Source of the DNA: a virus
Length of the DNA: 64,000 bases
IMG/VR virus record: IMGVR_UViG_3300030104_003872
Location: 11,291-75,290 of that record
Reading direction: 5' to 3' (one strand)
The notes beneath the pieces were generated by a model. It was not told the DNA's origin. It saw only the letters and a list, made by a program, of their open reading frames with translations, and made no database searches. The translations under genes were made by a program, and so were the position numbers. This document shows, piece by piece, positions 30,366 to 54,587 of the stretch; the stretch's first letter is position 1, and every line of letters begins with the position of its first letter.

Positions 30366-30533
30366 AGTATATATAATGTTCTAACTCTTGAGTTGTGCTT
30401 GAGTTGTAGCCTACTGCCTTACTACTAGAGTAGATACTACGCGTGTAGTGAGTGAGTGCTCTTATTATTGGTAAAAGATTCGGTAGAGGTATTCTCCCGC
30501 CCGTAACTCGTGAGATGGAAACATTTATGTGCC
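30366..30533. promoter_or_regulatory. composite intergenic module 5 (divergent promoters)
   Basis: Minus TATA 30366-75 with ACTCTTGAGT 30384; AAAAG 30473 and TCCCGCCC 30495; ACTCGTGAGA 30506 with TTTATGT 30524. Confidence 0.75.
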
Positions 30534-30594
30534 GTCAAGATATATTAGTAGATATGTACGGTACGACGATAAGTTTTACACAGGAGGCTGAATA

Positions 30595-31023: not shown

Positions 31024-31043
31024 GTTCAAAAACTTTATATCCT
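31016..31043 (+). promoter_or_regulatory. early promoter (degenerate palindrome CGTCGTGAGT, 8 nt, TTTATATCCT)
   Basis: Same spacing as the other early promoters. Confidence 0.65.
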
Positions 31044-31086
31044 AGAATTAATTATTGGTAGTATAGCGGAAGCGGAGGAAAGTATA

Positions 31087-31653
31087 ATGAGCAAATCAGC
31101 CGAAGAAGAGTTAATAGAAGAGTGGAAAGAACCAGAGCAACCAATGGATTATCTGATTCGACAACAAGAGAATGCTATCACGCAGACCAAGTATCTATTC
31201 TACAAACTCTATGATAAGAGTGACAAAGGATGGAGTGACGAGCAGAAAGAAGAGTGGGGTAATCATATCGACGAAAACGGTTTCCGCAAGTCGGAGTTAT
31301 TCCAAGAAGTACCTGCTCAACACAGATATGTGGTCGCTATACCAGAGACAGGCGAGTGGAAATCATTTAAGACTCGTTCCGAGGTAACACAAGACCGGCA
31401 AGGTGGAGCAATGTACCCCTATGCTAAGTGGTCTAAGCACGAGTCAGCCCGAATGGAGGCCTATGGTGCTATGAAACTCATGAGTTTAGCGTGTTCTAAG
31501 GTCTTACCTGAGAACTGTGATGACGAGCAAGCGTATTTACGACCTTCCGACATTGAAAGAGTTGCACTTATCCTATTAGAGATTGACGCAGAGCGAAGGG
31601 AATTATCAGAGTATTACGATGAGTTAGCCCAAGAATTAGAGGTTTCAGCATGA
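31087..31653 (+). CDS. hypothetical protein
   Basis: GGAGG RBS; ATGA overlap with the helicase gene. Confidence 0.65.
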   Translation: MSKSAEEELIEEWKEPEQPMDYLIRQQENAITQTKYLFYKLYDKSDKGWSDEQKEEWGNHIDENGFRKSELFQEVPAQHRYVVAIPETGEWKSFKTRSEVTQDRQGGAMYPYAKWSKHESARMEAYGAMKLMSLACSKVLPENCDDEQAYLRPSDIERVALILLEIDAERRELSEYYDELAQELEVSA

Positions 31654-33281
31654 GTATTGAAGAAGAGAACCTTCCAGTTAGAGTTTCAGAAAGACTCAAG
31701 GAATTGAGTGACACGAAAAGAAGTGAAATGAGCCTATATCTCTGGCAAGAAGGAGCAATACAGGCTTGGTCAGGCAACGGAGTTGCACGTGACCCTATTT
31801 CTGATAAACCTCTAGATGGTGATAAAGAGTTCTTTGGTATTGTCTCAGCCGTGACCGGTTCTGGAAAGACCTATGTTGCATCAGAGTGTGCGTGGGTCTG
31901 GTTACAGAAGAACCCAACCGGTAGAGTAACCGTATTGGTCCCGTCAAGAGCATTACAGAATAAGTGGAGAAAAGACATGGCCGGAGCGTTCCCCCACATG
32001 AGAATAGGTATGATGGGTGGTGGTAGAAGAGATTTCCGACAAATATCAATAGTGACCATGAATACGGCCGCTAAAGGTCTTCCAGAGACAGACGGTGAGC
32101 ATCTTATCATTGTAGATGAGTGCCATAATATCGGTTCAGAGTTTCGACAATATGCTATTCGTAATAATTCTCATACTGCGGTATTAGGTCTTAGTGCAAC
32201 TCCAGCGAGGGAAGATAGCGGTTTGACCGTTGTATCACACCTATGCGGTCCGGTCGTTTATCAATACAAGTATGACCAAGCACTCAACGACGATGTTATT
32301 ATCCCGTTTAGAGTTAGGGCGGTTGCAGTTCCTCTAACCCATATGGAGCGTTCAGAATATGAAGAGATTACAAATCAGATTAGGAAAATCTCTTTCATCC
32401 TCCGTAAGCGATATGGAGCAGGTACAAATTGGTTTGCACTCAAACAAGACCCATCAGACCCCGATACTGCTTTGACCACGTTCAAAGACCTATGTATGAA
32501 GCGTAAGAGACTTGTAAATGAGTGTCATCTAAGATTCGAGTGCGTTGATGATATATTGAGGTTACACGAGAACAGTAAGACCATGATATTTCACGAGCGT
32601 ATCAAACAAATAGAGTGGATGCACGATAAATACCGAGGCCTATGTCCAGAGACAATACCAAATTGCGAGGACACATGGGAAGAAGTCGCTTTGACCCCAC
32701 CGGACTGTTCCGAGTGGTTAGGCATGAATCCAGAGTTATATCACGGTGATATGACCAAAGGGGAAAATGATAGAGCGTTTGAGGCATTTGCCGAGGGCGA
32801 TGCTAGTATTCTCTTGTCATGTAAGGCTCTTCGTGAAGGAGTTGATGTACCCTCGTGCGACTTAGGTATTATGGTGAGTGGTACTAATTCCGCTCGTGCT
32901 AGAGTTCAGACACTTGGTCGTTGCTTGAGACGTGGAGAAGGTAAAACAGGAGCGATTGTATATTTACTCTATGTCCCAAATACGACTGATGCGAAAGGAC
33001 TCGCTAATCTCAAATATGGTGGAAAACTACCCGACGGTACTATCGAATGGTGGAGATACACCCCCAACAAAGGTCTAGTTAAGTATGGTGAGGAAGAGCA
33101 ACCCGAAATACCTAAGAGGAAACCAAAAGCCGAGAAGAAGAAACATATATGTGACTCGTGTCATAAGGTCTTTCATACGGAGTCAGCATCGTTGTCAGAG
33201 AACCACCATTGCTATCCTCGATTAACCAAGACAGGTCGAAAGCCTATTGACCTTTGGGGTGATATGATTGGTCGAAAGTGA
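31650..33281 (+). CDS. superfamily 2 DEAD/DEAH helicase (XPB/Rad25-like)
   Basis: TGSGKT, IVDECH, GLSATP, EGVDVP and QTLGRCLR; C-terminal C2H2-like CDSC...HH. Confidence 0.92.
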   Translation: MSIEEENLPVRVSERLKELSDTKRSEMSLYLWQEGAIQAWSGNGVARDPISDKPLDGDKEFFGIVSAVTGSGKTYVASECAWVWLQKNPTGRVTVLVPSRALQNKWRKDMAGAFPHMRIGMMGGGRRDFRQISIVTMNTAAKGLPETDGEHLIIVDECHNIGSEFRQYAIRNNSHTAVLGLSATPAREDSGLTVVSHLCGPVVYQYKYDQALNDDVIIPFRVRAVAVPLTHMERSEYEEITNQIRKISFILRKRYGAGTNWFALKQDPSDPDTALTTFKDLCMKRKRLVNECHLRFECVDDILRLHENSKTMIFHERIKQIEWMHDKYRGLCPETIPNCEDTWEEVALTPPDCSEWLGMNPELYHGDMTKGENDRAFEAFAEGDASILLSCKALREGVDVPSCDLGIMVSGTNSARARVQTLGRCLRRGEGKTGAIVYLLYVPNTTDAKGLANLKYGGKLPDGTIEWWRYTPNKGLVKYGEEEQPEIPKRKPKAEKKKHICDSCHKVFHTESASLSENHHCYPRLTKTGRKPIDLWGDMIGRK

Positions 33282-33464
33282 GAAAATACATAGATGCGAC
33301 TTAGAGATTATTGGTTTTGATTATGACCAAAAGAAATGGGAGGTCACAGAACACCTCCGATGTAAAGAGTGCGGTGCTAGAGCAACAAAGATAGTAAAAG
33401 AGGTATATGTTCTTGACTCTTACTCAAAAAATATTAAGACATAGCCGGTAGCGACGTCTACTTG

Positions 33465-33492
33465 ACTCAAGAGTCAGCAATGTTTATATCCT
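33465..33492 (+). promoter_or_regulatory. early promoter (TGACTCAAGAGTCA palindrome, TTTATATCCT)
   Basis: Palindrome core 33465-74, 8-nt spacer; drives leaderless ardC. Confidence 0.8.
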
Positions 33493-33511
33493 AGTTTGAT
33501 ATTTTGGTAGT

Positions 33512-34744
33512 ATGGCGAAAGACGGAGGCTTCGGAAGAAGCATGAGCAAGGAAAAGCGTAAAGAGTTTGAGCGTCAACTTGCTGATGAGTTCATTGAGAA
33601 AATAAAAAGTGGCGATGTCGGTGCTTGGAGTTCAGGTTGGACCAACTTAGGAGGCAATACTATGCCTCATAATACAAAAGGTCGCCCATATAGAGGTATA
33701 AACACAATAATTCTCTGGCTTAGAGGTTCAGATTATAACTCTAATACATGGGGTACTTATCACTCTTGGAAAGAGGTTGCGAGGAAACACGCAATAAAAG
33801 AGGGTAAGTTTGAGTTAAAAATCGGTAGAGATGGAAAACCATACAAGCATACGACTGAGTGGTATGGAGTAAAGCAAGGAGAAAGCGGTACAAGCATTAT
33901 TCTCTGGAAACCACTCACATACAAGAACGAGAAAACCAATAAAAAGACAGGTGAGATAGAAGAGTCTATCGGTATGACCATGTTAATGCGAGTATTTACA
34001 GTATTCAATCGTGACCAGACAGGATTACCTGAGATTATTACAGAAACAGAGTTAGAAGAAGCAGAAGAGTTCAACAGTAGAGAAAAACAATTAGAAAACT
34101 GCCTCAATTGGTACATTGAGAACCCAAATCGTAAGGTGGTCAAGACTGGTGAGATGCTAGTACATCCTCATCCGAAGGCAGGTGAGAAACATACAGGTGA
34201 AGACCCTATATGGGTCGTAAAAGATGGTGATATTATTCTCAAACACGGCGGAGATAGAGCGTTCTATACATCTAGCAGAGATAGGATAGCACTTCCTCTT
34301 CGTGAGCAATTCAAAGAAAATGCGAGATACCTATCTACTAAAGGGCATGAGATTATCCATAGTACAGGTCACCCACTTCGACTTAATCGTGCTCTTGGTA
34401 ATAGATTCGGGAGCGAAGATTATGCTAAGGAGGAATTGATTGCCGAGTTCGGTACTGCCTTTCTCATAGGCTCATTCGGCATACAGGGAGAACTTCGTAA
34501 TGTTGAGTATATCAATAATTGGGCTTCGGTCTTGAGTAAAGAACCTAGATTCCTCATTACTGCGGCTCAAAGAGCACAAAAAGCAGTTAATTATGTACTC
34601 GAACCTTGGGTAGAACACGAGGCATGGCGTGACCAAGAAATAAATGACTTAAGAGAATATCTTGAGGGCAAAGAAATACAAATTACTCCTATGGGTCTTA
34701 ACAGATTACACGGAGATTTATCAGTTATGGAGGAAGAAGAATGA
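33512..34744 (+). CDS. ardC: ArdC-like ssDNA-binding antirestriction protein with a zincin-like domain
   Basis: PYRGIN...W.TY..W, V..GE.GT, FTVFN.DQ; AFY....D.I.LP, HEIIHSTGH, YAKEELIAE, YINNW. Confidence 0.9.
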   Translation: MAKDGGFGRSMSKEKRKEFERQLADEFIEKIKSGDVGAWSSGWTNLGGNTMPHNTKGRPYRGINTIILWLRGSDYNSNTWGTYHSWKEVARKHAIKEGKFELKIGRDGKPYKHTTEWYGVKQGESGTSIILWKPLTYKNEKTNKKTGEIEESIGMTMLMRVFTVFNRDQTGLPEIITETELEEAEEFNSREKQLENCLNWYIENPNRKVVKTGEMLVHPHPKAGEKHTGEDPIWVVKDGDIILKHGGDRAFYTSSRDRIALPLREQFKENARYLSTKGHEIIHSTGHPLRLNRALGNRFGSEDYAKEELIAEFGTAFLIGSFGIQGELRNVEYINNWASVLSKEPRFLITAAQRAQKAVNYVLEPWVEHEAWRDQEINDLREYLEGKEIQITPMGLNRLHGDLSVMEEEE

Positions 34745-34814
34745 GTAAAAAGAAATTGAGTAAAGATGGGTTAGAGATATTTGAGTTCAAACTACCATCA
34801 AAGGAGGAAGAAGA

Positions 34815-34958
34815 ATGAGTTATAAGATATTGAGATTTAGATTTGAAGGAAAAACAAGAGTAATAAAAAGAGGATTGACACTCGAAGAAGCCCAAGAGCA
34901 TTGCCGTGACCCAAAAACAAGTGGAGATGGTTGGTTCGACGGTTATACGGAGGAATAA
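34815..34958 (+). CDS. small conserved-looking phage protein (not in ORF track)
   Basis: MSYKILRF...RGLTLEEAQEHCRDPKTS..GWFDGY; AGGAGG RBS. Confidence 0.6.
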   Translation: MSYKILRFRFEGKTRVIKRGLTLEEAQEHCRDPKTSGDGWFDGYTEE

Positions 34959-34960
34959 AT

Positions 34961-35116
34961 ATGGCTATGAGCAGAAAACATTATAGAGTAATAGCAGAGG
35001 CAATAAGAACAAACGACGATAAGAGGAAAATGATACTAGAACTCAGTATGTTTTTCAAGGAGGATAATCCTAATTTTAACTTGAGTAAGTTTTTGGAGGC
35101 GTGTCATTTTGAGTGA
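34961..35116 (+). CDS. small phage protein
   Basis: MSRKHYRVIA...DNPNFNLSKFLEAC; GGAGG RBS. Confidence 0.6.
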   Translation: MAMSRKHYRVIAEAIRTNDDKRKMILELSMFFKEDNPNFNLSKFLEACHFE

Positions 35117-35294
35117 ATACAAGAAGTGCAACGAGACACAACACGAATGGACTCGACAAGACATGGATGATAGCGAGTTCGATAAATTATCATTGACCTA
35201 CCATTGTTTGCATTGCGGAGCAACGTGCGAGATGGAGGGTGATGTAAGGACAGATGATGGTAGGTTCATAGAGTGGGTGCTGACCGATGAGTAA
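35109..35294 (+). CDS. small Zn-ribbon protein
   Basis: C....HEW...CLHCG; coupled overlaps. Confidence 0.5.
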   Translation: MSEYKKCNETQHEWTRQDMDDSEFDKLSLTYHCLHCGATCEMEGDVRTDDGRFIEWVLTDE

Positions 35295-35778
35295 TTGGTA
35301 CTGTGGCGACCCTTGTTATGTTATACACGACGAAAGATGGGGAGAGTTTTGTAATAAACTCTTTGCACACCCTAGTTATGAGAAAAACAACTACCCAATT
35401 GGTATAGAGTGGGAAGTCGATGGGAAAAAATACGAATTAGAGATATGGGGTTCTCCCGGAGGCGACGGGGTCTGGCGTTTTAGTGCAGGAGAACTTGGAG
35501 TTGATGCGGGATTACTTTCTATCATTCCGGTAGAGTGCCTTGACCCTCAAGAGGCACCATTCGACAGACTAGGTATTATGTTCGAGGAAAAGCCAGTACT
35601 CGATGCCGACTATAATGAGGGTAAAGTATGGTTAAATGGAGAACTAGATAATGATTGGGTCATGTGCGATTGTGGAGAAATGCAAAGGACAGAGCAGATT
35701 TGGGATTGTGAGCATTGTTTTAGTGCAGAGTGCGACAACTGTTACCCATGTTGCGACGGAAATGGTGAAGAGGAATGA
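35287..35778 (+). CDS. hypothetical protein with a C-terminal Cys cluster
   Basis: YCGDPCYV, GGDG and GVDAG motifs. Confidence 0.6.
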   Translation: MSNWYCGDPCYVIHDERWGEFCNKLFAHPSYEKNNYPIGIEWEVDGKKYELEIWGSPGGDGVWRFSAGELGVDAGLLSIIPVECLDPQEAPFDRLGIMFEEKPVLDADYNEGKVWLNGELDNDWVMCDCGEMQRTEQIWDCEHCFSAECDNCYPCCDGNGEEE

Positions 35779-35944
35779 GTAAGATGAATTGTGGATGCGA
35801 GTTTGATGAAGTAGAGTTGGATGAGCGTGTGTTAGGCGAGGCTTGTGGTTGCTCATCATGTCTGGACTGTGGACTCATCAACACACAAGACCCTAATCCT
35901 CAGAATTGGAAATGCTACCCCGACCACCCATGTTCCTGTGACTA

Positions 35945-35972
35945 ACTCAAGAGTTACAAATGTTTATGTACT
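35945..35972 (+). promoter_or_regulatory. early promoter (TAACTCAAGAGTTA palindrome, TTTATGTACT)
   Basis: Core 35945-54, 8-nt spacer. Confidence 0.75.
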
Positions 35973-36117
35973 AGTTAGCGTTAGGTGTAGATGTAGGGGG
36001 TTGTGAGGTGATTACGGTTTTTCCAGACTCGTGTCTTTCATTCAAACGAGTCATCACATTTCATTGTAATTCTCTGGCTGTTGTTGTCTCCACCTCCTGC
36101 AATCAAGGAGATTTAAT

Positions 36118-36468
36118 ATGAGAACAGATAGTTGGTCGGTACATGGAGATGAAATTGACGCAAAAGAGTATAAGAGCCTTGTTGAAGAGGCAGTTGTCAA
36201 AAACATGACCGAAAACAGAGATGTGGAATTAGAATTACTCATCCATGATGGCGAGTTTATGTCTGATGAAGAGATAATAGACAACCTTAGAGGTATGTTA
36301 GATGAGCACGTTTGGTATAGAGTTCTTTTAGACAAATATAGAGCACGCATAAGAACGGCCGAGACACTAATCAAAATGGTCCGTGACCATAATGGCTCTT
36401 TCGCGAGTGAAATTGCTATACAGACCAATGTTGACCTATTCCTAAGACACGGAGGCGAAGAAGAGTGA
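36118..36468 (+). CDS. hypothetical protein
   Basis: AAGGAG RBS after a structured leader. Confidence 0.6.
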   Translation: MRTDSWSVHGDEIDAKEYKSLVEEAVVKNMTENRDVELELLIHDGEFMSDEEIIDNLRGMLDEHVWYRVLLDKYRARIRTAETLIKMVRDHNGSFASEIAIQTNVDLFLRHGGEEE

Positions 36469-36583
36469 CGACAACATATAGACTAGAGATAATAATGGAT
36501 GCAGACGACAAAGACGACTTTATTGATGTGGTTATGAGTCTGAATAGAAGAGAGTTAAGAGAACACGTTAAGGAGATGGATTA

Positions 36584-37162
36584 ATGGCGATAGAGATACT
36601 ACAACAACCTTCTGTTGTGTGGCCGGTAGACCTTGATGCAGAGGATGATGACAGTTTCGGACGGACCTATGCAGAACAGGCTCAAGCATATTTTGAGCGT
36701 CTAAAAGAAAGCCCAGAGTACGGCGTGAGCACAGGTAAATTAGAAGCGACTTACGAAGATTGTCTCATATATGTATTGGCTAACTTCGGTCATGTCGATA
36801 TGAAGCAACTAACACCCTCGGTTGTTAGAGATGCTTATGGAGATAACTGTTGGTACATACATACTCATAAAACTCCACAAAAGACTTTGAGATTATACAT
36901 GAAAGTCGGAAATCCATTATCCGAGTTTGGGAGGCAGAATCAAGATTTGCTCCCAGATAACTACACTACTAGAAGAGTTGTATGTGAATGGTATGGTAGG
37001 GATGGAGGTATAGTTATACTCTATGGTCCAACTCCGGAAGATACAAGATTATGGTCTTTCGGGTGTAATCACTCGATGGCGACTAGGAAGCGGATAGGTA
37101 GTTGTTATAACGAGTATTCGTGCGAATGTGGAGCGAAATGGACGGTGGATTCGAGTGGTTAA
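36584..37162 (+). CDS. hypothetical protein
   Basis: AAGGAG RBS; C-terminal GC.H...C...CECG...VDS. Confidence 0.6.
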   Translation: MAIEILQQPSVVWPVDLDAEDDDSFGRTYAEQAQAYFERLKESPEYGVSTGKLEATYEDCLIYVLANFGHVDMKQLTPSVVRDAYGDNCWYIHTHKTPQKTLRLYMKVGNPLSEFGRQNQDLLPDNYTTRRVVCEWYGRDGGIVILYGPTPEDTRLWSFGCNHSMATRKRIGSCYNEYSCECGAKWTVDSSG

Positions 37163-37430
37163 ATTATTGAGATGGACAGGTAAAGTTGAGGACTTAGGTT
37201 CTGAGAAAGATATATCAATGGAGCGTTATCAGCAGTTAGTCGGTGGTTACTTCGAGTCAATAGTCCTCAAGACAGGCGAAAGAGCGTATGTCAATGAGGA
37301 TGCTTCTTACTCTAACTTACCCCTCAATCCACTATGTTTTCTCCATCATATATACACGCAAGGTAGAGATATTCACCCAAGAGGAAATGTAATAGTTTTC
37401 TCTGATAAAGAATGGAGACAAATGACATGA
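37128..37430 (+). CDS. DUF3846-like protein
   Basis: YQQLVGGYFE...YVNED...PLNP...RGNV; start may be slightly downstream. Confidence 0.6.
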   Translation: MERNGRWIRVVKLLRWTGKVEDLGSEKDISMERYQQLVGGYFESIVLKTGERAYVNEDASYSNLPLNPLCFLHHIYTQGRDIHPRGNVIVFSDKEWRQMT

Positions 37431-37663
37431 GAATTAATGAATTATACGACAAAATATATTGGAACGACAAGAATAGCATAGTAATACTCTGGCACACAGA
37501 CGACGTGAAGTCGATAAGACCGGATTTAGATGATGACCAGTGTATGAAAGTTCTCAATAAGGTTTCTCGCAACCATGACGCTCAGATTGGAGTAAATTGG
37601 GATGTTTTAGAGTTTTGGGCTGACGAGTTATATGGTGTAATGAGGTCAGAGGAAGAAGAATGA
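37412..37663 (+). CDS. hypothetical phage protein
   Basis: W...DV...RPDL.DDQC..VL...HDA..G.NW. Confidence 0.55.
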   Translation: METNDMRINELYDKIYWNDKNSIVILWHTDDVKSIRPDLDDDQCMKVLNKVSRNHDAQIGVNWDVLEFWADELYGVMRSEEEE

Positions 37664-38129
37664 TTCGACCTATGGGACCTTGGTTTAATGAGCCATGCAA
37701 AAATTGTGGCGAGAAAGCAGACAAACAGGTCATTCTAGACCAAGATATTGTCTATCTCTGCGAAAAATGTTACTCTAAAATATGAGTCTTTTTTTGTAGT
37801 TTATTTCCGGTAGAGTTAAAGAGAAAATGCTTCTGCGAGATGTAGCACTCCGACAAAACTATTATAGGGAGAAGGGACAAAAAGGACCACTTGGGGCTTT
37901 CTCACGAGTAGGTTTAACACCGAAGAAATTGACGAAGAGATTCCTGTTACTCTATGGGAATGCGTCTTTTGTGATTCTCAATTTTACATTATCACAGACT
38001 GTAGACCAGATTATTGCCCCGAATGCCTTAAAAGAGGCACATTGGTCTTTCTCGACGACATAGAAAATGATTCTTGGAGACCTAGGGACTATGAATAAGT
38101 TTATATCAAAATACGCCTAGCATCCATTA

Positions 38130-39185: not shown

Positions 39186-39683
39186 ATGAACATATTTATC
39201 CTAGATGAAGACCCAATAATGTCTGCAAAGTTTTACTGCGACAAGCACATACCTAAGATGGTTGTTGAGTTATACCAACAACTAGGTAGTGCAGTTATCC
39301 GACACGGTGCAACGCCCGACATGATGCCACTTACTAAAAAAGGTACGCCCCTACGCGGAGGTTACCACAACCACCCTTGTACCCGTTGGGTAGGAGATTC
39401 ACGGGCTAACTTTCTATGGGCTTCTTATCACGCCGCTATGCTCTGCGAAGAATATACAAAGCGATTCGACAAAACACATTTCTGCGAACATGGGATAGAA
39501 AAATTATACGAGTTACACAAACTTATTCCCGATGGCGAATTGACACCGTTTGCTCAGGCTATGCCCGATGAGTACCGTGATGAAGATGCGGTGGTAGCAT
39601 ATCGCAACTACTATATGTACGACAAGTCAAGATTTGCACAATGGAATCGTGGTCGTGACGCACCTTATTGGTGGGTAGTTTAA
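39186..39683 (+). CDS. pyrimidine-dimer DNA glycosylase / endonuclease V-like protein
   Basis: MNIFILD.DP...CDKH..KM..E..Q, HNHPCTRW, EY..R..K.H, FAQAMPDEY, AYRNYY. Confidence 0.8.
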   Translation: MNIFILDEDPIMSAKFYCDKHIPKMVVELYQQLGSAVIRHGATPDMMPLTKKGTPLRGGYHNHPCTRWVGDSRANFLWASYHAAMLCEEYTKRFDKTHFCEHGIEKLYELHKLIPDGELTPFAQAMPDEYRDEDAVVAYRNYYMYDKSRFAQWNRGRDAPYWWVV

Positions 39684-43384: not shown

Positions 43385-44050
43385 ATGGGAGTAATAATTT
43401 ATGCGGGTGATGATAAGGATTTCAAGAACGGAGACCATATAGTAATGTATGGTGAAATGACTTCTCCCCCTACTGCACCTAACACAACATATATTCTTCA
43501 TTGTGAATCATTCCCCCTATCTATGGCTAAAGAATGGGCTAATTTAGTAACATATAGGCTAGTTGTGATACCTAGAAAGGGTATTAGGGGCATTCGTGAA
43601 GGGGATAATATTCTAATCCACAAATCGGCTAAAACGGCTAAAAATAACTATAATTCACCAATCAATGCTATGATGAAGTGGTCAGACCGCAACAGGGCAT
43701 GGAAGGCTATGAAACCTGTCCCATTTGCTTTAGCAGAGGCATTTCATAAAGTAAATAGACCGAATGGTATAGAAGAGCAAAGGATAATCAGCAAAGCCCG
43801 CTATCAGATGGAAGAAGAATATGCAAAGGCGGCTCTTGTATTCGGAACAGAAGCGATTCACAGTCATGTCTCATGGCCTAAGAAGAAAGCAGACGAAAAT
43901 GATACAATCCCCTTTGGGTTCAGGTCTACTGATGTGTATGCTGATATGATAGTACAACACGCCCCCGAAGTACGAAATAAACTTAGAGCGATTGACCAAG
44001 CACCTTCTAGTATCAAGAAAACAAAGGAGTCATTGTTAGAATGGCTTTGA
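43385..44050 (+). CDS. putative clamp-loader accessory (degenerate RFC large subunit-like) with a C-terminal PIP-like motif
   Basis: Ends KTKESLLEWL*; lies near RFC small; AAGGAG RBS. Confidence 0.4.
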   Translation: MGVIIYAGDDKDFKNGDHIVMYGEMTSPPTAPNTTYILHCESFPLSMAKEWANLVTYRLVVIPRKGIRGIREGDNILIHKSAKTAKNNYNSPINAMMKWSDRNRAWKAMKPVPFALAEAFHKVNRPNGIEEQRIISKARYQMEEEYAKAALVFGTEAIHSHVSWPKKKADENDTIPFGFRSTDVYADMIVQHAPEVRNKLRAIDQAPSSIKKTKESLLEWL

Positions 44051-44947: not shown

Positions 44948-45889
44948 GTGTTGGCGTGTAGCAGAAGAAGTAAGGGGATGGTACTCGTGAAAGTAATTTG
45001 GGCTGAAAAGTATCGACCTAAGATTTTGGATGAAGTATTATCACAGGATTCGGTAGTATCTGAAATGCGAGCGATTGTTAGCGGGGATGCACCCATGCAA
45101 CATTTCTTATTCCACAGTCCTGAGCCGGGTAGTGGTAAAACAACTATGGCGAGGGTTATGGCTGATGAATTAGGTTATCAACTACATGAGTTTAATGCTT
45201 CCACTAAGAAACAAAGAGGAATAGATTTTGTCGAAGATGATATTGCCCCTATGTCTAGGATTGGTCAGTTTGAAACTATATTCCTTCTTGACGAGGCAGA
45301 TAGAATTACACCGACTGCACAAGACGCATTGAAAGGTGTTATTGAGAACGCACAGGGATATTTCATTCTAACCTGCAACGACTTGAACAAAGTATCTCCT
45401 TGGCTCAAATCTAGGTGTCAAGTTAGGACCTTCAAACCTATACCCGATGACTTAGTAATGGAGCGTCTAAAACATATATGTGTTCAAGAAGCGGTAGAGA
45501 TGACCGAAGATGATTTGTTAATAATTATTAAGAAACATGGTGGTGATATGAGAAACGCTATTGGTGCATTACAGGCGGCCTCTTATCTATCCCCCATAGA
45601 TAGACAACAATTTATTGCATCCATAAGCACTCCGACCATAGATGCAGGTTCGGTTTTGACTATTTGCTTCAAAATGGGTAATGTTCCCGAAGCGGTCAAG
45701 ATATTGAGCCAAGCACCTGCACGTGAGGCTATTCATCAAGTATTCCTTAAAGCAATAGAGGCAAACATAACAGACCATGAAAAGAAGATGTTGGTTGTTG
45801 AAGCATCCATTCAAGCACGCAGAGACCTAATAAATGGTGTTCCCGAAGTGTATGTTATTTGGGAGTTTTGCCGATTTATAAGCCAATAA
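44948..45889 (+). CDS. rfcS: replication factor C small subunit (clamp loader)
   Basis: WAEKYRP, PGSGKTT, EFNAS, LLDEAD, AQDAL, SRC and GDMR; true start probably near 44978-44987. Confidence 0.95.
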   Translation: MLACSRRSKGMVLVKVIWAEKYRPKILDEVLSQDSVVSEMRAIVSGDAPMQHFLFHSPEPGSGKTTMARVMADELGYQLHEFNASTKKQRGIDFVEDDIAPMSRIGQFETIFLLDEADRITPTAQDALKGVIENAQGYFILTCNDLNKVSPWLKSRCQVRTFKPIPDDLVMERLKHICVQEAVEMTEDDLLIIIKKHGGDMRNAIGALQAASYLSPIDRQQFIASISTPTIDAGSVLTICFKMGNVPEAVKILSQAPAREAIHQVFLKAIEANITDHEKKMLVVEASIQARRDLINGVPEVYVIWEFCRFISQ

Positions 45890-48143: not shown

Positions 48144-48342
48144 TGGATGATATGAAACAAACTCTTCAATACTTAAGGTCAGACATAGACACTTTGATGC
48201 TAGAAATGCGTACATTAAAAGAGGAAAATAGACAATTAAAATCAAGCCTAGAAATTATGGCTCAAAGATTGGCTAATGAAAGGAACGAACCTCTGATAAA
48301 ATGGACATAATCCTTATAAGTGGGTGCTAGGTGGAATAGAAT

Positions 48343-49170
48343 ATGTTAGTCAAGGCAAGCAACATGAAAAAGTTACTAGAAGTAACTGCGAGAAAACAAT
48401 TTGTAAATGGAAAACCTCAACAACAGGTAATAGGTTGTGTATTAAGAGGAACTCAGATGGATGAAGTAAGCACAACGAGTTTAGTTCGTGATGGTAAAAC
48501 ATCTATCGCACAGTTCTCAACTGTATGCGACTGGAAAGATGATGAACAGGCTATTGTTATCCCCGACATTGATAGAACACTAGGAGTTCTTTCAGCACAC
48601 AACGGAGATATAACTATGACGCAAGATGGTGGCTCATTAAGAATAAAGAGCAAAGGCAAGCAAACAACCATTGTTGCAGAGCCCGGTAGTTTAGCATTTC
48701 CTCACACACAAGAAACTATTGCTGAGTGGGAAAGTAAATCACTAACCCTTTCTGAGCAAGTCAATGAAGATGCAGGTTCTTACAAAATGCGAGATGGTTC
48801 TGACAGAAAAGCATTCTTTATGGCTGAGACTTCTGCGTCTATACTTCACGAGGCTTTGAAGGCTGATAACATGAACTCGCAGAAACTTAACCAATACACA
48901 TTCAGATATGACGGTCAAAATGTTCTATATGTTCAGACTGGTACTGACCTAAAAGGACAGACAGAAACAATACTGAACGACGATTGTCAGCAACAGGTTG
49001 AATCTTTCGAGGCAACTTATGAAGGTGGGCTTGAGCAAATACTATCACACTATGACGGTATGGTCAAACTATACTTCTTAGACTTCCGACCAGAAGGACA
49101 GGGTATCAGACTAATTGTTAGTTTTGATAACGGAGATTGGGTTTTCCAAGCGTGCGTTCTAAAGAGGTGA
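48343..49170 (+). CDS. DNA sliding clamp (PCNA-like)
   Basis: 275 aa with a two-domain alpha/beta pattern; same module as RFC and PolB; leaderless after CTTATAAG. Confidence 0.65.
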   Translation: MLVKASNMKKLLEVTARKQFVNGKPQQQVIGCVLRGTQMDEVSTTSLVRDGKTSIAQFSTVCDWKDDEQAIVIPDIDRTLGVLSAHNGDITMTQDGGSLRIKSKGKQTTIVAEPGSLAFPHTQETIAEWESKSLTLSEQVNEDAGSYKMRDGSDRKAFFMAETSASILHEALKADNMNSQKLNQYTFRYDGQNVLYVQTGTDLKGQTETILNDDCQQQVESFEATYEGGLEQILSHYDGMVKLYFLDFRPEGQGIRLIVSFDNGDWVFQACVLKR

Positions 49171-49175
49171 TTTGA

Positions 49176-49373
49176 ATGATAAGAAAAATTCTCCGGACTA
49201 CCTTTAATACTTCTTACGGAACGACGCATATTAACGTGTCTGATATTTCCGCTATCACAGAAACTAGAGATAGATTTGAAATCCATATGACTTCCGGTAC
49301 TATATTTACTACCGTTGATAAAGAAGGACCATATGTGTTTGTTACTAAATGGATGGAGGGGCGAATTGAATGA
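49176..49373 (+). CDS. small hypothetical protein (FlbD-like beta fold)
   Basis: HINVSDISAI...EIHMTSG; GAGGTGA RBS. Confidence 0.5.
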   Translation: MIRKILRTTFNTSYGTTHINVSDISAITETRDRFEIHMTSGTIFTTVDKEGPYVFVTKWMEGRIE

Positions 49374-50548
49374 GTATCGAAAGACATATCATTAGAACCC
49401 CATTAAGGGAGCGTTATGGTGCTCCACCTTTCAGCATCCTAGATGCACGACAAGGTTATTGGCAAGACAGAAAGCGTTGGTGGACTCGTAAAGGCATCCG
49501 GTCAGAATTAGGAAGGGGTGAGGCACTTATCGCTATGTCTAAATCGAACATGAAGTATATGTTTGGTAAAAAAGAGTACGATGTTGACCAGTTACAGAAA
49601 GAGGGAATCCTTCTAACTGATGAAGAAGTTGAAGTTGGTGGAGATTCTAAAGGTAACGCTAAGACATTCGCTATTGGAGATAAAGCAACGTGGAATGAAA
49701 CTAAGAGCGATACTAGAGCAATTCCAGGAGGAGGGACAGGTAAAAATAGTGTTTGGCTTCATAAGAAAGAAGATGGGAGCATGGGTGCTTCCCTAAAGGA
49801 AGAAGATGCTTTCAAGAATAGAGCAACAGGTACTTCTATATTCGACCCAGTCCTAACAGAATTAATGTACGATTGGTTTTGTCCGAAAGACGGTAGTATT
49901 CTTGACCCTTTCTGTGGTGGTTCTGTTAGAGGGATTGTCGCGGCTCATGGTAATCATCAGTATGCGGGTATGGAATTACGTTCCGACCAAGTACAAGCAA
50001 ATAGGATTCAAGGATTAGAGATACTAGGCGATACTGATTATCCTATGCCTAATTGGGTTGTTGGAGATGCACTAGACATACAAGATAAGATAGGTGGTCA
50101 ATGGGACATGGTATTTTCATGCCCCCCTTATGGTGACCTTGAAGTCTATTCAGAAGATGATAGGGATTTATCCACTATGGAACACCACGAGTTTTTAGAT
50201 TCATATAGAAATATTATTCAGCGTTCTGTTGATATGCTCAAGGATAATAGATTTGCAGTATTTGTTGTTGGGGATTTTAGAAACGAAAAAGGATTCTATC
50301 GTAACTTCGTTAGCGACACTATTGACGCATTCCAATCAGCAGGTGCTACCTTATACAATGAATGTATCTTAATTACAGTTGCAGGTAGCCTTCCTATAAG
50401 AGTACATAAGCAATTCGCTAACAATAGAAAGTTAGGTAAAACTCATCAGAATGTTTTAATCTTCTTCAAGGGTGACCCCAAGACTATACAGGATGAGTTC
50501 CATTATCTTGATGTTGAAGATAAGACAGAGGACGTGGAATGGCTTTAG
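49370..50548 (+). CDS. amino (N6-A/N4-C) DNA methyltransferase-fold protein with a C-terminal PIP-like motif
   Basis: PPFSILD, SIFDPVL.E, ILDPFCGGSVRG (motif I), FSCPPY (motif IV variant), LEVYS, HQNVLIF; ends VEWL*. Confidence 0.85.
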   Translation: MSIERHIIRTPLRERYGAPPFSILDARQGYWQDRKRWWTRKGIRSELGRGEALIAMSKSNMKYMFGKKEYDVDQLQKEGILLTDEEVEVGGDSKGNAKTFAIGDKATWNETKSDTRAIPGGGTGKNSVWLHKKEDGSMGASLKEEDAFKNRATGTSIFDPVLTELMYDWFCPKDGSILDPFCGGSVRGIVAAHGNHQYAGMELRSDQVQANRIQGLEILGDTDYPMPNWVVGDALDIQDKIGGQWDMVFSCPPYGDLEVYSEDDRDLSTMEHHEFLDSYRNIIQRSVDMLKDNRFAVFVVGDFRNEKGFYRNFVSDTIDAFQSAGATLYNECILITVAGSLPIRVHKQFANNRKLGKTHQNVLIFFKGDPKTIQDEFHYLDVEDKTEDVEWL

Positions 50549-51501
50549 ACTTTAGCGAGTTTGTACCATTAACATTTGATAATTACAGAGCCTTTAGGAA
50601 TGGATTGTTCCGTGCCTACCGTCATCCACGATATTATCAATCACCTATGAGGCTTCTTCACCAACCCCATGTATTCAAGTTAGGGTATGTTGATGATGAC
50701 TTGGTCGTTCTAAAAGACAGGCAAATAATGGGAACACAGGTTCTCTATTCTATATTGCCCCCGAATAATTGGGAGGTAATACATAAACTAACAGAAGGAG
50801 GTGTCCCTTGTTTTCTAAGTGACGAAGATGTGTTTAATGCTCCTGATAAGCATGGGGTTGTTCCTGTAAAGGACAACATAGAGTATGTGTATCATCTATC
50901 AGCATTTTCGGATAGATATGGGGTGAATAAGAACCAACTTAGAAGGCCATGTAACAAGGCTGAGTCGCTTTGTGAGTCGGGTGAAATAACTATTGAAGCA
51001 CATTGGGGTAATGTTCCCTATGAAACGCTTAATTCATGCAATGTTTTGACCGCTAAGTGGTTAGCCCAAAGGGATAAGAAAGCATGGAAACCTAACTTCT
51101 TTATTGACTCTTTCAATAAGTATTCTAAACTAGAACACGCTCTTCTTTTGACTGTTATGCAGGGGGATAGATGTTTAGGCTACCACCTATCACATAGGGT
51201 ATGTAATGGTTTAATTTACGATGTGGCCTGTAAGGATTATGAGAACACACCTATTAAGAATATGACTCCTGTCCTTCTTCACTATGCTTCTAAAGCGTGG
51301 GCGGAGAAGTTCCCTTCACAGTTAGAATACACAAGGGTTAATAGAGGAGCGGCAGTTAGGGGTGCGTCTAGCCGGATAGCCAAAGACAAACTAAGACCGC
51401 TATTAAAGAATCAGATATACAAGACAGTTCCCCCTATCAAGATGACTAAAGAATTAAAATCATCATACTTTGAAGTAAAACAGAATGTCGAATGGTTATA
51501 A
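50539..51501 (+). CDS. DUF2156 / MprF-C-like tandem-GNAT transferase with a C-terminal PIP-like motif
   Basis: EYVY...G...LRR..NK and VNRG...G...R.AK.KL.P resemble the DUF2156 dYiY..G..kRn..N and iNre.DlG..gLr.aK..y.P patterns; ends VEWL*. Confidence 0.55.
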   Translation: MALDFSEFVPLTFDNYRAFRNGLFRAYRHPRYYQSPMRLLHQPHVFKLGYVDDDLVVLKDRQIMGTQVLYSILPPNNWEVIHKLTEGGVPCFLSDEDVFNAPDKHGVVPVKDNIEYVYHLSAFSDRYGVNKNQLRRPCNKAESLCESGEITIEAHWGNVPYETLNSCNVLTAKWLAQRDKKAWKPNFFIDSFNKYSKLEHALLLTVMQGDRCLGYHLSHRVCNGLIYDVACKDYENTPIKNMTPVLLHYASKAWAEKFPSQLEYTRVNRGAAVRGASSRIAKDKLRPLLKNQIYKTVPPIKMTKELKSSYFEVKQNVEWL

Positions 51502-51569
51502 TACGAAGCCTTATAAGTAACCGCCTCTTCGGATATAGTAGAAAGCCCATAGGCAGAAGGCCATAACAA

Positions 51570-51854
51570 ATGAAGTACAGTTTAGTAATAGAAGATGAAG
51601 ATAGCACAAGAACAATTCCGATTGACCCTAATGAACGATTAGTAGTTGATAATGTATGGTACTCACTTGAACTAGGTCAAGCAAAAACAGATAGACCATA
51701 TAGAAGTGAAGAATGGCTAACTGCCGTATATCATGGTGAAGGTAAGACTCTTAAAGAAATAGGAGATATGTGTGGCGTAAGTCCGATGACCATAAATCAA
51801 TGGTTAGTAAAGCACGGAATCACTAGCAGACCTCGTGGGAGGAGAAGAGAGTGA
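51570..51854 (+). CDS. HTH DNA-binding protein
   Basis: EEWL...Y..EGKTLKEIGDMCGVSPMTINQWL.KHGI. Confidence 0.8.
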   Translation: MKYSLVIEDEDSTRTIPIDPNERLVVDNVWYSLELGQAKTDRPYRSEEWLTAVYHGEGKTLKEIGDMCGVSPMTINQWLVKHGITSRPRGRRRE

Positions 51855-52354
51855 ATGTTACTTTCTATCTTTGCGGACCGATACTTAGTGAAAATGAAAG
51901 ATGGCGTTCATTAGAGTGGCGTGAAATCGCTTTTGATATTCTCGATTCTAATGGCTTCAATGTTTTCAATCCTATGGTAAGTGAGGACTATGGGAATGTT
52001 CATTATGATGAGCAATTTAAGGAATTGATTGTTCCACGAGATAAACTAATGATAGACCGTTCAGATGTTATAATAGTGAATTGGATTCCTAAAGAAATGA
52101 GTATAGGGACTTGCATGGAAGTCATGTATGCTCATCAGCAGGGGAAGAAGGTAATATGGTTCGCAGAAGACCAATCACTTGCTCTTGAACTCGAAGAAAA
52201 CCCTTGGGTCATAGCACACAACGATTGGGAGTTTGTTAGACCGTTTAGTTCCGATAACATAAGGGATATAGCAGAATGGTTTGGTTGCTTCAAAAAGACT
52301 AAGAGAATGGTCAAGTTTTTGAACAGTAACGAAAGGCCAAATGACTTTTGCTAA
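51851..52354 (+). CDS. nucleoside 2-deoxyribosyltransferase / dNMP N-glycosidase (Rcl/MilB-like)
   Basis: YLCGPI, D..MIDRSDVII, SIGTCMEVMYA...GKKV. Confidence 0.85.
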   Translation: MNVTFYLCGPILSENERWRSLEWREIAFDILDSNGFNVFNPMVSEDYGNVHYDEQFKELIVPRDKLMIDRSDVIIVNWIPKEMSIGTCMEVMYAHQQGKKVIWFAEDQSLALELEENPWVIAHNDWEFVRPFSSDNIRDIAEWFGCFKKTKRMVKFLNSNERPNDFC

Positions 52355-52385: not shown

Positions 52386-54587
52386 ATGATAGTGGATGGC
52401 TTAGGTGGAAGAAGGGTTGCAGTCAGGTATCGTGACCCAGTTACACTTGACCGGAAGCAAGATATTATTAATGATATTTACCCATACGCATTTATTAGTG
52501 ATGTTGATGCTGACCTTATTCCGGCAGTAAAGAAAGAAAGTGGATTCACTGGTCTGTATGGTGAAAATATTACCAAGATTACACTTGCTGACCCTTACGA
52601 AACTTCACAACTAAAGAATACATTTTCTCAGACATGGGAATGTAATATCCCCTTCACTAACAGAGTACTTATTGACAATGGTAAGCATTATGATTTCTAT
52701 AAGCATCGTGTGTGGTACGTTGACCTTGAATGGAATGAAAGGGAAGAAGTAACAGTTGCGACTGTCTATGATAATTACATGGGGAAGTATCTAACGTGGT
52801 TTGTATCACCGCCCGGTCAAACTCACCCACCATTGGTAAATAAATTAGGAGATAAAACATTCAATCCCCCACTAAAAGCATTCAAGACCGAAAAGGAATT
52901 ACTCGATGACTTCTTCCATGTGATGATGAAGAAGGACCCCGATGTATTGACAGGTTGGTTCTTCATGGGTGCTGATATGCGAGTCCTGTTTGATGCTTGT
53001 AAGAGACATGGTTGGAATGCAGGTAAGCGTATGAGCCCGCATGGTTCTGTTCGTTATCAGTTTGACGACTATTCACAATGTATCAAGGGCAGAATTACTA
53101 TTGACCTTATGACTGTATTTTGCAGACTATGGCGTGTAAAGAACGGACAACTACCAGGTCAAAGCCTAAAAGATGTATCGCAGTTTGTTCTTGATAATGA
53201 AGAAAAGATGGACCTAGCAGACGGGCATGATACATACTATACCGACTTAGGGACATATATTGACTATAACATACAAGACGTTGCTTTGCTACCTAAATTG
53301 GATAAGATGCTTAACTGTATCGACCACTTCCTTAACCTTCAACATATTGTTCAATGTGATTTCATTACCACTCCTTGGGTCACAAGATTAGCAACCATTC
53401 TTCTTCTAAGGGATGAGAAGTTTGATAGAAGGATTCCAAGTAAGCCACAGTTTGCTTATGAGGATTATCAAGGGGCAGATATACAGGAAGCGGTAGCAGG
53501 TTTGTATGAAAGAGTTGCTATCATGGATATAAGAGCAATGTATCATAGTAACATTCTGAAATACAATATCTCATGGGAAACTATACTTGATGAAAAGAAT
53601 GGAGTGTTTGATACTGACGCACCAACAGGGGCATTAGGCCGTGCTATGGACCTACTTACAAATCTAAGGAATGAGTACAAGGCTAATATGAAGGCTTCGA
53701 CAACCAAAGAAGAAAAGACTAAATGGGATTCGGCTCAATACGCCACGAAGTCGCTAGTGGCTTCCCTGTATGGAGTCTGTGGTGATAGCCGATTCGGTAT
53801 GTATCACCCTGCGGTAGCGGCGGCTATTACTCGCACATCAAGAAATACGCTTGGTGAATTACGAGACAAGTGTATAGAATGGGGTTGTGATGTTATCTAT
53901 GGTCATACTGATTCTGTTTTCGTTACCGTTGAATCCCCCGAAGCAGGTATGGAGATGGTTGATTGGATTAATAAAGAAATGGCTCCAATAGAAACTGAGT
54001 TTGAAAAGTATTGTGAGCGTATGTTGCTTAAGGCTAAGAATAGGTACGCAGGTAAGGTCACATGGACTGATGGTGAATATCACGAACCCGACTATTATGT
54101 CAAGGGGATAGAATCTAAACAGGCTAGAATGCCTCAGGTAATGAAGGATGCTATGAATACTACAATAAACTCTATGCTTGATGGTAAATCTGAACAATGG
54201 GTCAATGATAAAGTGTGCAGTATTATTCACGATATGGTAGATGGTAATATCCCACTTGACGAGTTGAAGCAGAAAGGAAAACTAAAGAAGGACCTAAAAG
54301 ATTATAGAACAATAGGAGGTTCGGCCGCAGGAGCATTGTGGGCTAATACAAACTTGGGGAAGGAATATAGAAAGGGAAGTTATTTCTGGGTCTTACTTGA
54401 TTCAAGCGGAAGGTTTATAGCGTTTGACTCAGTGGAAGAACTACCAAGTAACATTGCGATAGGCTATGAGGTGATGATTCAACGATACATAATAGAAAAG
54501 GTCAAACCTTTTTATGAAATAGCATCGTGGGAAATGAGCCAATTACATGACGCAAAGAAAGGAAGAAAAGCAGTAGAGTGGTTATAA
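52386..54587 (+). CDS. polB: family B DNA polymerase
   Basis: Exonuclease VDLE and YNIQD; polymerase DIRAMYHS, KSLVASLYG, YGHTDS, KNRY and VKGIE; ends VEWL*. Confidence 0.95.
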   Translation: MIVDGLGGRRVAVRYRDPVTLDRKQDIINDIYPYAFISDVDADLIPAVKKESGFTGLYGENITKITLADPYETSQLKNTFSQTWECNIPFTNRVLIDNGKHYDFYKHRVWYVDLEWNEREEVTVATVYDNYMGKYLTWFVSPPGQTHPPLVNKLGDKTFNPPLKAFKTEKELLDDFFHVMMKKDPDVLTGWFFMGADMRVLFDACKRHGWNAGKRMSPHGSVRYQFDDYSQCIKGRITIDLMTVFCRLWRVKNGQLPGQSLKDVSQFVLDNEEKMDLADGHDTYYTDLGTYIDYNIQDVALLPKLDKMLNCIDHFLNLQHIVQCDFITTPWVTRLATILLLRDEKFDRRIPSKPQFAYEDYQGADIQEAVAGLYERVAIMDIRAMYHSNILKYNISWETILDEKNGVFDTDAPTGALGRAMDLLTNLRNEYKANMKASTTKEEKTKWDSAQYATKSLVASLYGVCGDSRFGMYHPAVAAAITRTSRNTLGELRDKCIEWGCDVIYGHTDSVFVTVESPEAGMEMVDWINKEMAPIETEFEKYCERMLLKAKNRYAGKVTWTDGEYHEPDYYVKGIESKQARMPQVMKDAMNTTINSMLDGKSEQWVNDKVCSIIHDMVDGNIPLDELKQKGKLKKDLKDYRTIGGSAAGALWANTNLGKEYRKGSYFWVLLDSSGRFIAFDSVEELPSNIAIGYEVMIQRYIIEKVKPFYEIASWEMSQLHDAKKGRKAVEWL

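Follow-up and report, generated by a model that had tools for sequence, protein, structure and literature searches.

Hypermodification of phage DNA is a source of new enzymology and of DNA-labelling tools, and it explains escape from restriction and CRISPR. The IMG/VR virus record IMGVR_UViG_3300030104_003872 (75,290 bp, rated complete by CheckV) raises the question of whether two enzymes encoded inside a replication module could carry out such a modification together. In the window, by which we mean the whole stretch of 64,000 nucleotides analysed here (bases 11291-75290 of the record), a gene for a methyltransferase-like enzyme overlaps a gene for a double GNAT protein, and both lie between the genes for a sliding clamp and a family B DNA polymerase (PolB). 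A previous reading of this DNA from its letters (the sequence-only reading) had described this layout, with a nucleoside deoxyribosyltransferase (NDT)-like gene before polB, and had proposed a two-step base modification by the methyltransferase and the GNAT. The layout was borne out with Pfam, AlphaFold and Foldseek. What holds of the proposed modification is that the methyltransferase and the DUF2156-like GNAT are supported as a functional pair acting on DNA, because their overlapping adjacency is conserved, because the GNAT is found inside distant methyltransferases, and because both proteins have a polymerase-type C-terminal tail in common. The genes that frame this question are:

48343 to 49170, + strand: virus-encoded sliding clamp of predicted PCNA fold with two domains, 275 amino acids (aa) (AlphaFold and Foldseek)
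49370 to 50548, + strand: CPPY-family amino-methyltransferase-like enzyme, 392 aa (PF01555, motifs and the tail DVEWL)
50539 to 51501, + strand: soluble DUF2156-type double GNAT, 320 aa (fold model, conserved motifs and the tail NVEWL)
52386 to 54587, + strand: PolB, with the C-terminus AVEWL (sequence-family searches and tail comparison)

The methyltransferase and GNAT genes are linked by overlap and by fusion

The GNAT gene starts 10 nucleotides (nt) before the stop codon of the methyltransferase gene. Every related viral contig with a GNAT gene has the methyltransferase gene in front of it with this 10-nt overlap, even where GNAT identity falls to 47%. When 1.84 billion representative proteins were searched with a profile, 148 relatives of the GNAT emerged. 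Among the eight long relatives, five have the DUF2156-like domain inside a CPPY methyltransferase and a sixth has SPPY in place of CPPY. The point of insertion in these fusions is between motif I and CPPY of the methyltransferase (examples are P0247, P0256, P0258, P0259, P0275 and L099:6-1985). Alignment of P0275 with the window methyltransferase gave three blocks of 46-58% identity flanking a 600-aa insert, part of which aligned with the window GNAT. On the phage contig L099 the fusion is a single unbroken open reading frame (ORF) with terminase-like genes alongside. A pyridoxal phosphate (PLP)-dependent (PALP) domain is also found in three fusions (P0256, P0275 and the SPPY protein P0279). 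At four more distant loci a stand-alone GNAT lies at most three genes from an SPPY or CPPY methyltransferase homolog, and in three of these four an RFC-like clamp loader is also close. Searches with tblastn for the GNAT over 50,697 phage records gave no match, and a profile of the distant GNAT homologs retrieved nothing from the genome contigs.

Four modular forms are seen: the methyltransferase alone, with the PLP domain, with the GNAT, and with both. Such a pattern would be expected if a base-modifying core could be supplemented by further, optional steps. The position of the GNAT in the fusions also lends itself to another interpretation, in which the GNAT-like protein has no catalytic role and, as a subunit for specificity, DNA binding or regulation, stands in for a target-recognition domain. 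In the fusions it occupies the slot between motifs I-III and motif IV, which is where the target-recognition domain of alpha-class amino-methyltransferases reportedly lies in the classification of Malone et al. 1995, and the window methyltransferase has no obvious recognition domain. We consider a non-catalytic role distinctly unlikely, in that 42 invariant columns of the GNAT, including the motif NRGAAVRG and the basic helix described below, suggest a ligand-binding, catalytic site.

The GNAT has a predicted DUF2156-type fold

50920 to 50976, + strand: basic inter-domain helix of the GNAT, residues 128-146 (conservation)
51340 to 51363, + strand: invariant NRGAAVRG of the GNAT (homolog alignment)
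51484 to 51498, + strand: tail NVEWL of the GNAT (tail comparison)

The structural model of the GNAT (pLDDT 90) has the double GNAT fold of DUF2156 proteins of the MprF-C or FemX type, and several homologs bear a precomputed PF09924 match. The 42 columns do not vary among homologs with identities as low as 36%, and they include NRGAAVRG and parts of the inter-domain helix. NRGAAVRG falls where a strand meets a helix in the second GNAT half and is the counterpart of the GNAT cofactor-binding loop. In DUF2156 enzymes, a positively charged helix between GNAT I and GNAT II binds aminoacyl-tRNA (PMC7334510). The predicted helix 131-146 between the two halves of the window protein has an invariant K131 and nearly invariant R135 and R136, and its equivalence to the tRNA-binding helix is by position alone.

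The DUF2156 enzymes characterised experimentally all act on lipids, being aminoacyl-phosphatidylglycerol synthases and ergosteryl-amino-acid synthases. By analogy, the GNAT could carry out an MprF-like lipid aminoacylation that remodels host membrane lipids, in which case the methyltransferase neighbourhood would be coincidental. This is very improbable for a soluble protein of 320 aa that has no flippase or membrane domain, bears a polymerase-type tail, is located in a replication module and has distant homologs fused into DNA methyltransferases.

CPPY is a trait of a large methyltransferase family

49415 to 49483, + strand: N-terminal PPF/WW motif of the methyltransferase (motif reading)
49901 to 49924, + strand: motif I of the methyltransferase, LDPFCGGS, residues 178-185 (motif reading)
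50114 to 50131, + strand: FSCPPY of the methyltransferase, residues 249-254 (motif reading)
50531 to 50545, + strand: tail DVEWL of the methyltransferase (tail comparison)

The window methyltransferase scored 39.8 bits against PF01555, above the gathering threshold of 26.7, and matched phrog_12517 (E 3e-98) and phrog_498 (E 4e-80). Motif I, for binding S-adenosylmethionine (SAM), and the segment AGMELR (residues 199-204), with the acidic residue that follows strand 2, are both kept in P0275. Motif I precedes FSCPPY in the window protein, which is the opposite of the order in the Pfam model. The sequence-only reading had called the catalytic motif non-canonical. It does depart from the canonical motif IV, (D/N/S)PP(Y/F/W), with Cys at the first position, but this is not peculiar to the gene. 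At E values up to 1e-10 the homologs numbered over 7,900, and CPPY, including the Cys, was invariant in the best 120, in which the motif was inspected. CPPY is a family trait and not a local oddity. Members of the family among phages include those of HCTV-2, Listeria B054, Enterococcus phiFL3A and mycobacteriophages.

The distant methyltransferase homologs that adjoin GNAT genes read SPPY, a signature that is commonly tied to N4-cytosine enzymes (PMC4738411). Because these sister enzymes have SPPY at the CPPY position, cytosine N4 is a somewhat more likely target than adenine N6. The family to which the window enzyme belongs is that of the methyltransferases of phage ParB-terminase loci, as these are discussed in that article, which cites Iyer et al. 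2013 on them. The window enzyme shares with them membership in one large family, an unpermuted catalytic domain and a predicted role in phage DNA modification. It differs in that it lacks the ParB_N core, lies in a replication module and not beside the terminase, and has gained the xEWL tail and a GNAT partner. We found no match to ParB_N (PF02195) in the window methyltransferase, though the core is present in many homologs. With the ParB_N-containing P0275, the N-terminal alignment was limited to the region downstream of ParB_N, at the PPF/WW motif (P0275 residues 154-214).

Homologs from Pseudanabaena phage Pam4 (gp70, L098:4482-6971) and from Erythrobacter phages (matches H17 and H18) aligned to the window methyltransferase in two separated blocks, which points to an insert in these proteins. 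The Pam4 homolog is annotated as a PLP-dependent enzyme. Pam4 and the Erythrobacter phages are cultured, tractable systems for learning the product of the CPPY family.

A C-terminal tail is shared with the polymerase

43385 to 44050, + strand: o221, a 221-aa protein of unknown fold that ends in LLEWL, with the tail found in 45 related loci

Four ORFs, those of o221, the methyltransferase, the GNAT and PolB, end in EWL, with 0.03 expected among 399 ORFs. Their tail sequences are SLLEWL, EDVEWL, QNVEWL and KAVEWL. The tail is kept in GNAT homologs down to 36% identity, with the Trp invariant, and is missing from bacterial and phage homologs of the methyltransferase. We surveyed it in 4,883 ORFs from about 80 related loci and in 11 whole records. 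Its bearers among the 4,883 ORFs were PolB (49), o221 (45), CPPY methyltransferases (21), the GNAT (8), a PD-(D/E)XK nuclease (1) and 36 others. All of these 36 that could be identified modify DNA, and they comprise C5 and N6/N4 methyltransferases, DpdA, a Mom-like protein (phrog_1384, E 1e-33) and proteins with a P-loop domain and a GNAT domain. Among ORFs of at least 100 aa in the loci and the whole records, the tail is essentially restricted to PolB, o221 and DNA-modifying enzymes. The exceptions overall were one PD-(D/E)XK nuclease, one unannotated 239-aa ORF and a few short ORFs; in the 11 whole records they were the PD-(D/E)XK nuclease (G004) and one short unannotated ORF (G000). A tail of the form x[EG]W[LIV] was seen on DpdA, on C5 and N6/N4 methyltransferases and on a Mom-like protein (L034:6268-7074, L033:15373-16932, L033:16923-18080, L061:13680-16592 and L039:13518-14102).

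Short peptides bind clamps in archaeal PolB (a C-terminal PCNA-interacting protein (PIP) box), in gp43 of T4 and RB69 (a C-terminal tail) and in eukaryotic DNMT1, and DNMT1 is a precedent for clamp-coupled DNA methylation at replication. The tail described here resembles these clamp-tethered enzymes in being a short C-terminal peptide common to a polymerase and other DNA enzymes. It differs in its form, which is phi-E-W-[LIV]-COOH and not Qxx[LIVM]xx[FY][FY], and in that it would serve a whole viral anti-restriction modification repertoire. The simplest explanation would be docking of xEW[LIV] on the viral clamp, which would bring the modification enzymes to the fork. Of 142 distant GNAT homologs that seem to come from bacterial viruses, nine have QLxL or xLDLF at the C-terminus, a pattern picked after the tails had been inspected, with 0.25 expected from internal windows of the same proteins. 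These ends resemble bacterial beta-clamp-binding motifs.

For o221, searches of Pfam, PHROGs and the ESM Atlas and a PDB profile search returned no family. In every related genome examined, o221 has the polymerase-type tail. It is likely a core replisome component or a clamp client.

The fusions and the tail both bear on a simpler account of the two genes. In it, the methyltransferase would make plain N4-methylcytosine or N6-methyladenine at GAGCTC or GAG, and the GNAT would be an unrelated replisome-bound enzyme that aminoacylates or acylates a fork protein (the clamp, PolB or a host factor), as its fold relatives L/F-transferase and ATE1 act on protein N-termini. We regard this as unlikely. 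Several independent fusions place the GNAT in the methyltransferase catalytic domain beside the base-binding CPPY loop, which is hard to square with a protein substrate, and all other identifiable tail-bearing accessory enzymes of the virus group act on DNA bases.

GAG/CTC and AGCT in genomes with and without the pair

20354 to 21457, unstranded: GAG/CTC-free segment of 1103 bp that contains an ORF at 20521-21024 and has a 1215-bp counterpart in the relative G003
21457 to 38000, unstranded: GAG/CTC-rich block of about 16 kb, with 42-83 per kb vs about 18 per kb elsewhere

The sequence-only reading had predicted GAG as the target from the statistics of this word, and these statistics proved to be real. 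The 75-kb genome contains 12 AGCT where about 240-280 are expected, and all 12 are in GAGCT. GAGCTC occurs 8 times (12.3 expected), only four half-sites GAGCTN are left where about 90 are estimated from base composition, and AGCT in a context without GAG does not occur. The GAG/CTC-free gap adjoins the rich block, in which the enrichment extends to all three reading frames and to intergenic DNA. Taken together, the four genomes with the pair (this one and three whole relatives) have 47 AGCT where about 900 are expected, a depletion of about 95%. All 47 survivors are in GAGCT, and 36 of them are GAGCTC (40 expected). By comparison, AGCT and GAGCTC are absent, and GAG shows nothing unusual, in four near-complete relatives in which we saw neither a CPPY methyltransferase nor a tail-bearing modification enzyme. 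Among AGCT-avoiding clusters, GAGCTC was held by 5 of 9 with the methyltransferase vs none of 24 without it (dereplication at 90% clamp identity; Fisher's exact p ~5e-4, calculated by hand and with kinship ignored).

We considered coding constraint as the cause of GAGCTC survival and rejected it, as relatives without the methyltransferase have no GAGCTC where 72 are expected. The idea that GAG is a globally unusual trinucleotide was likewise discarded, its overall observed/expected ratio being about 0.95-1.03.

Our whole-record survey of words covered 11 records. Of the relatives with the pair, G003 has both the gap and the block, G001 (a fragment) has the block, and G002 has a weaker block; neither gap nor block was present in any of the four relatives without such enzymes. 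These data support GAG/CTC as a special word only in genomes that bear the pair. Another relative, G005, has a tail-bearing P-loop and GNAT protein and no pair. A 1.73-kb gap in its genome contains neither CAG/CTG nor GAG/CTC, and its AGCT sites, 15 in number, are all in [CG]AGCT. Since G005, with another enzyme, has a [CG]AG signature and the genomes with the pair have a GAG signature, the word signature appears to track the enzyme content of the accessory island between the clamp and PolB genes.

As for GAG being the target, the prediction stands in that GAG/CTC is special in the genomes with the pair, but full exemption from AGCT avoidance is confined to the palindrome GAGCTC and half-sites are about 95% depleted. 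Full exemption thus seems to require the word on both strands, as a difference between hemi- and full modification would predict. These site-avoidance data provide a concrete predicted target (GAG/CTC, GAGCTC) and a contrast between related viruses that would modify their sites and those that have purged them.

The P-loop NTPase and GNAT acetyltransferase protein of G005 (L045:11045-12190) and of G009 (L039:12364-13554) is about 380-396 aa long, ends in the tail xEW[IV] and has its gene between those for the clamp and PolB. Its architecture is reminiscent of TmcA, a tRNA cytidine N4-acetyltransferase, and it may be a candidate DNA acetyltransferase. Viruses with C5 and N6/N4 methyltransferases or DpdA (e.g. 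L032-L034 and L061) showed no avoidance of GATC or AGCT. In the genome studied here GATC is absent (about 234-279 expected) and GCGC occurs twice (about 90-147 expected). Many 6-mer palindromes are missing, CCATGG, CTATAG, ATGCAT, ACATGT and GGTACC among them, and CCAGG and GCAGC are 9- to 16-fold depleted.

A proposed replication-coupled modification of GAG/CTC

The best explanation of the whole is, in our view, a replication-coupled two-enzyme modification of GAG/CTC by a tail-bearing, clamp-docked methyltransferase and DUF2156 GNAT, to which we give a little better than an even chance. The scheme, in which the binding to the clamp, the action of the GNAT on DNA, the donors and the product are all inferred, would run as follows. 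The core of the accessory island would be the translationally coupled SAM-binding CPPY methyltransferase-like enzyme and the double GNAT. The xEWL tails of both enzymes, like that of PolB, would dock on the viral clamp such that the enzymes ride the replisome and modify nascent viral DNA. The enzymes would most likely target GAG/CTC, and the base that they modify would be one in the AGCT core of GAGCTC. The methyltransferase-like enzyme would flip the base and put a SAM-derived group on an exocyclic amine, that of cytosine N4 being the more likely. Next, the GNAT would acylate either the base or the group already installed on it, most likely with an aminoacyl moiety drawn from host aminoacyl-tRNA. 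The product would shield viral DNA at GAGCTC from a host nuclease directed at AGCT, and the GAG-rich block would be densely decorated.

A fuller and more tentative version is that a DUF2156/Fem enzyme aminoacylates a DNA base or a SAM-derived handle at GAG/CTC with host aminoacyl-tRNA, coupled to replication by a clamp-binding tail, that bacteriophages have built on this chemistry with single polypeptides that unite methyltransferase, PLP and DUF2156 domains, and that the whole viral modification repertoire is clamp-tethered. This combination is possible, and we would sooner expect some part of it to fail than all of it to hold.

Several points weigh against the proposed modification. The tail does not fit the canonical PIP box Qxx[LIVM]xx[FYW][FYWL], having a single residue between the aliphatic and aromatic positions and no conserved Gln, and it might bind a hub other than the clamp. 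The GNAT scored 24.3 bits against PF09924 (E 2e-5), which is under the gathering score of 27.5. We know of no DUF2156 or Fem enzyme that uses an exocyclic base amine as its acceptor. The methyltransferase could do plain methylation. We found no PLP domain among the window ORFs scanned and no tRNA genes in the window. The recognised site may be GAGCTC and not GAG, given the depletion of half-sites, and the rich block would then need another explanation. Finally, the GAG signature is confounded with phylogeny: the genomes with the pair form approximately one clade, and another clade-specific gene could be its cause. A thymidylate-synthase-like hydroxymethylase, a PLP enzyme and a SAM-metabolising gene also did not turn up among the window ORFs scanned.

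Comparison with known systems

The closest parallel in outline is the CmoA/CmoX/CmoY system of Synechococcus phage S-B43 (PMC12783734). It too is a post-replicative two-step system, in which a methyltransferase homolog adds a handle derived from a SAM analogue and a second enzyme then adds an amino acid, and its gene neighbourhoods often include a ParB-domain protein. The chemistry differs: its product is 5-carboxymethylcytosine-glycine, CmoX is homologous to C5-cytosine methyltransferases and uses the carboxy-SAM that CmoA produces, and an ATP-dependent amide ligase adds the amino acid. In the window virus, by contrast, the first enzyme is of the PF01555 type and the second of the DUF2156/Fem type, and there is no CmoA among the ORFs scanned.

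Mom of phage Mu is likewise a GNAT-superfamily enzyme that makes a post-replicative base modification (N6-carbamoylmethyl-adenine) against restriction. In a related virus, a Mom-like protein with the xEW[LIV] tail fills the equivalent island. Mom itself is a single-domain GNAT that has no methyltransferase partner, whereas the window protein is a double GNAT of the aminoacyl-tRNA-transferase clade. The known acceptors of DUF2156/Fem transferases (the MprF C-domain, A-PGS, L-PGS, FemX, ErdS and Sbb17) are lipids, peptidoglycan precursors, sterols and small molecules. None of the known enzymes acts on DNA, is fused to a DNA methyltransferase or has a clamp-type tail, and the window GNAT, as we interpret it, would be unlike them in these respects. 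The literature that we searched contained no DNA-directed DUF2156 enzyme, no viral modification enzymes with clamp tails and no discussion of CPPY; an earlier prediction in Iyer et al. 2013 (NAR 41:7635) is possible.

If true, the proposed modification would provide the first nucleic-acid substrate for the DUF2156/Fem superfamily and a new class of hypermodified DNA base. If confirmed, it would also be a new pathway common to archaeal and bacterial viruses and tied by fusion to thousands of uncharacterised phage methyltransferases. The common polymerase-type tail suggests a general principle, namely replication-coupled modification via the sliding clamp, for which DNMT1 offers a comparison.

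The virus and its replication module

44948 to 45889, + strand: RFC-like clamp loader (phrog_168, E 1e-44; PF00004 and an RFC lid domain)
49176 to 49373, + strand: orf65, a 65-aa ORF in a variable slot that is filled by unrelated 127-179-aa Cys-rich or acidic ORFs in relatives

The window encodes a terminase, a portal, a collagen-repeat protein, an RFC-like clamp loader, a Sak4-like ATPase, PolB, and PD-(D/E)XK and ERCC4 nucleases. The closest PolB proteins in the phage collection are those of haloarchaeal tailed viruses (~23% identity), and the sources of homologous proteins are marine metagenomes (Tara) and one 'Euryarchaeota archaeon' bin. Because of this polymerase kinship and these marine and euryarchaeal homologs, the virus appears to be a tailed virus of marine archaea that resembles magroviruses and replicates with a PolB, a clamp loader and a clamp of its own. 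Magrovirus-like viruses encode their own replisome (ICTV profile PMC10768690).

With a 40-sequence alignment as input, AlphaFold modelled the clamp as a two-domain processivity fold (pLDDT 93, pTM 0.90). Foldseek matched this model to the PCNA structures 3ifv, 2ijx, 1isq and 3lx2 and to beta clamps (E ~1e-10, TM 0.57-0.71), and the model resembles PCNA of Haloferax, Sulfolobus and Pyrococcus as well as two of the three domains in bacterial beta clamps. By sequence, the clamp did not fall into the PCNA or DnaN families: Pfam and PHROG searches gave no match, and a profile of the 40 sequences retrieved no clamps from the PDB sequences. None of the 96 homolog clusters of the clamp family has a Pfam match. 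The clamp gene is flanked by the RFC-like gene, 2.5 kb upstream, and the PolB gene, 3.2 kb downstream, an order that is kept in about 80 loci.

The NDT-like gene and putative transcription units

48313 to 48321, + strand: TATA-like box CTTATAAGT, 30 nt upstream of the clamp start and a candidate promoter of clamp-orf65-methyltransferase-GNAT
51510 to 51518, + strand: second TATA-like box CTTATAAGT, upstream of the HTH and NDT-like genes
51570 to 51854, + strand: helix-turn-helix (HTH) DNA-binding protein, immediately upstream of PolB in nearly all relatives, whether the island is present or not
51851 to 52354, + strand: NDT-superfamily protein, 167 aa (PF05014; SIGTCME at nt 52100-52120)

The NDT-like protein scored 44.6 bits against PF05014, above the threshold of 28.8. 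The catalytic nucleophile is kept as E90, the counterpart of Glu98 of 1f8x in the alignment and without variation in five homologs, and the equivalent of Asp72 is also kept. Six residues before Glu90, where Lactobacillus NDT has Asp92, it has an invariant Ser84, which sets it apart from NDT proper. We take Ser at the Asp92 position, six residues before Glu, to be a mark of the Rcl/DNPH1 deoxynucleoside monophosphate (dNMP) N-glycosidases. A PDB profile search with the protein retrieved no DNPH1 chain at E 10, and the Rcl-like label hangs on this one position.

The HTH gene, which like orf65 does not figure in the sequence-only reading, stands between the GNAT and NDT-like genes. Because it is placed before PolB in nearly all relatives regardless of the island, it is to be counted with the replication core, separate from the modification pair. 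The NDT-like gene is present in all loci with the pair that extend far enough and is absent elsewhere, including the distant GNAT loci. It had been proposed as a sanitising member of the operon. Its place in the NDT superfamily was confirmed, but it is probably part of a separate HTH-NDT unit and is clade-specific, which leaves that role weakly supported. A role in clearing modified dNMPs is possible, the one line of evidence for it being co-inheritance within one clade.

Boxes of the form CTTATAAGT or TTTATAAGT occur six times where 1.7 are expected (window positions 48313, 51510, 54964, 57046, 57204 and 62815). Four of the six are 23-60 nt upstream of the starts of replication-module genes, and some precede the PDDEXK and ERCC4 genes. 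They are candidate archaeal-type TATA promoters. A box with one mismatch, GTTATAAGT, is located upstream of PolB, and the stretch from the clamp to the GNAT contains none. The genes are probably transcribed as three units, clamp-orf65-methyltransferase-GNAT, HTH-NDT and PolB.

Elsewhere in the window are genes predicted to encode a protein with ArdC-N and zincin metallopeptidase domains (33512-34744) and a T4 endonuclease V-like pyrimidine-dimer glycosylase (39186-39683). The collagen-repeat protein is 862 aa long (8902-11490, - strand), and a local enrichment of CAG/GGA there is explained by its collagen repeats.

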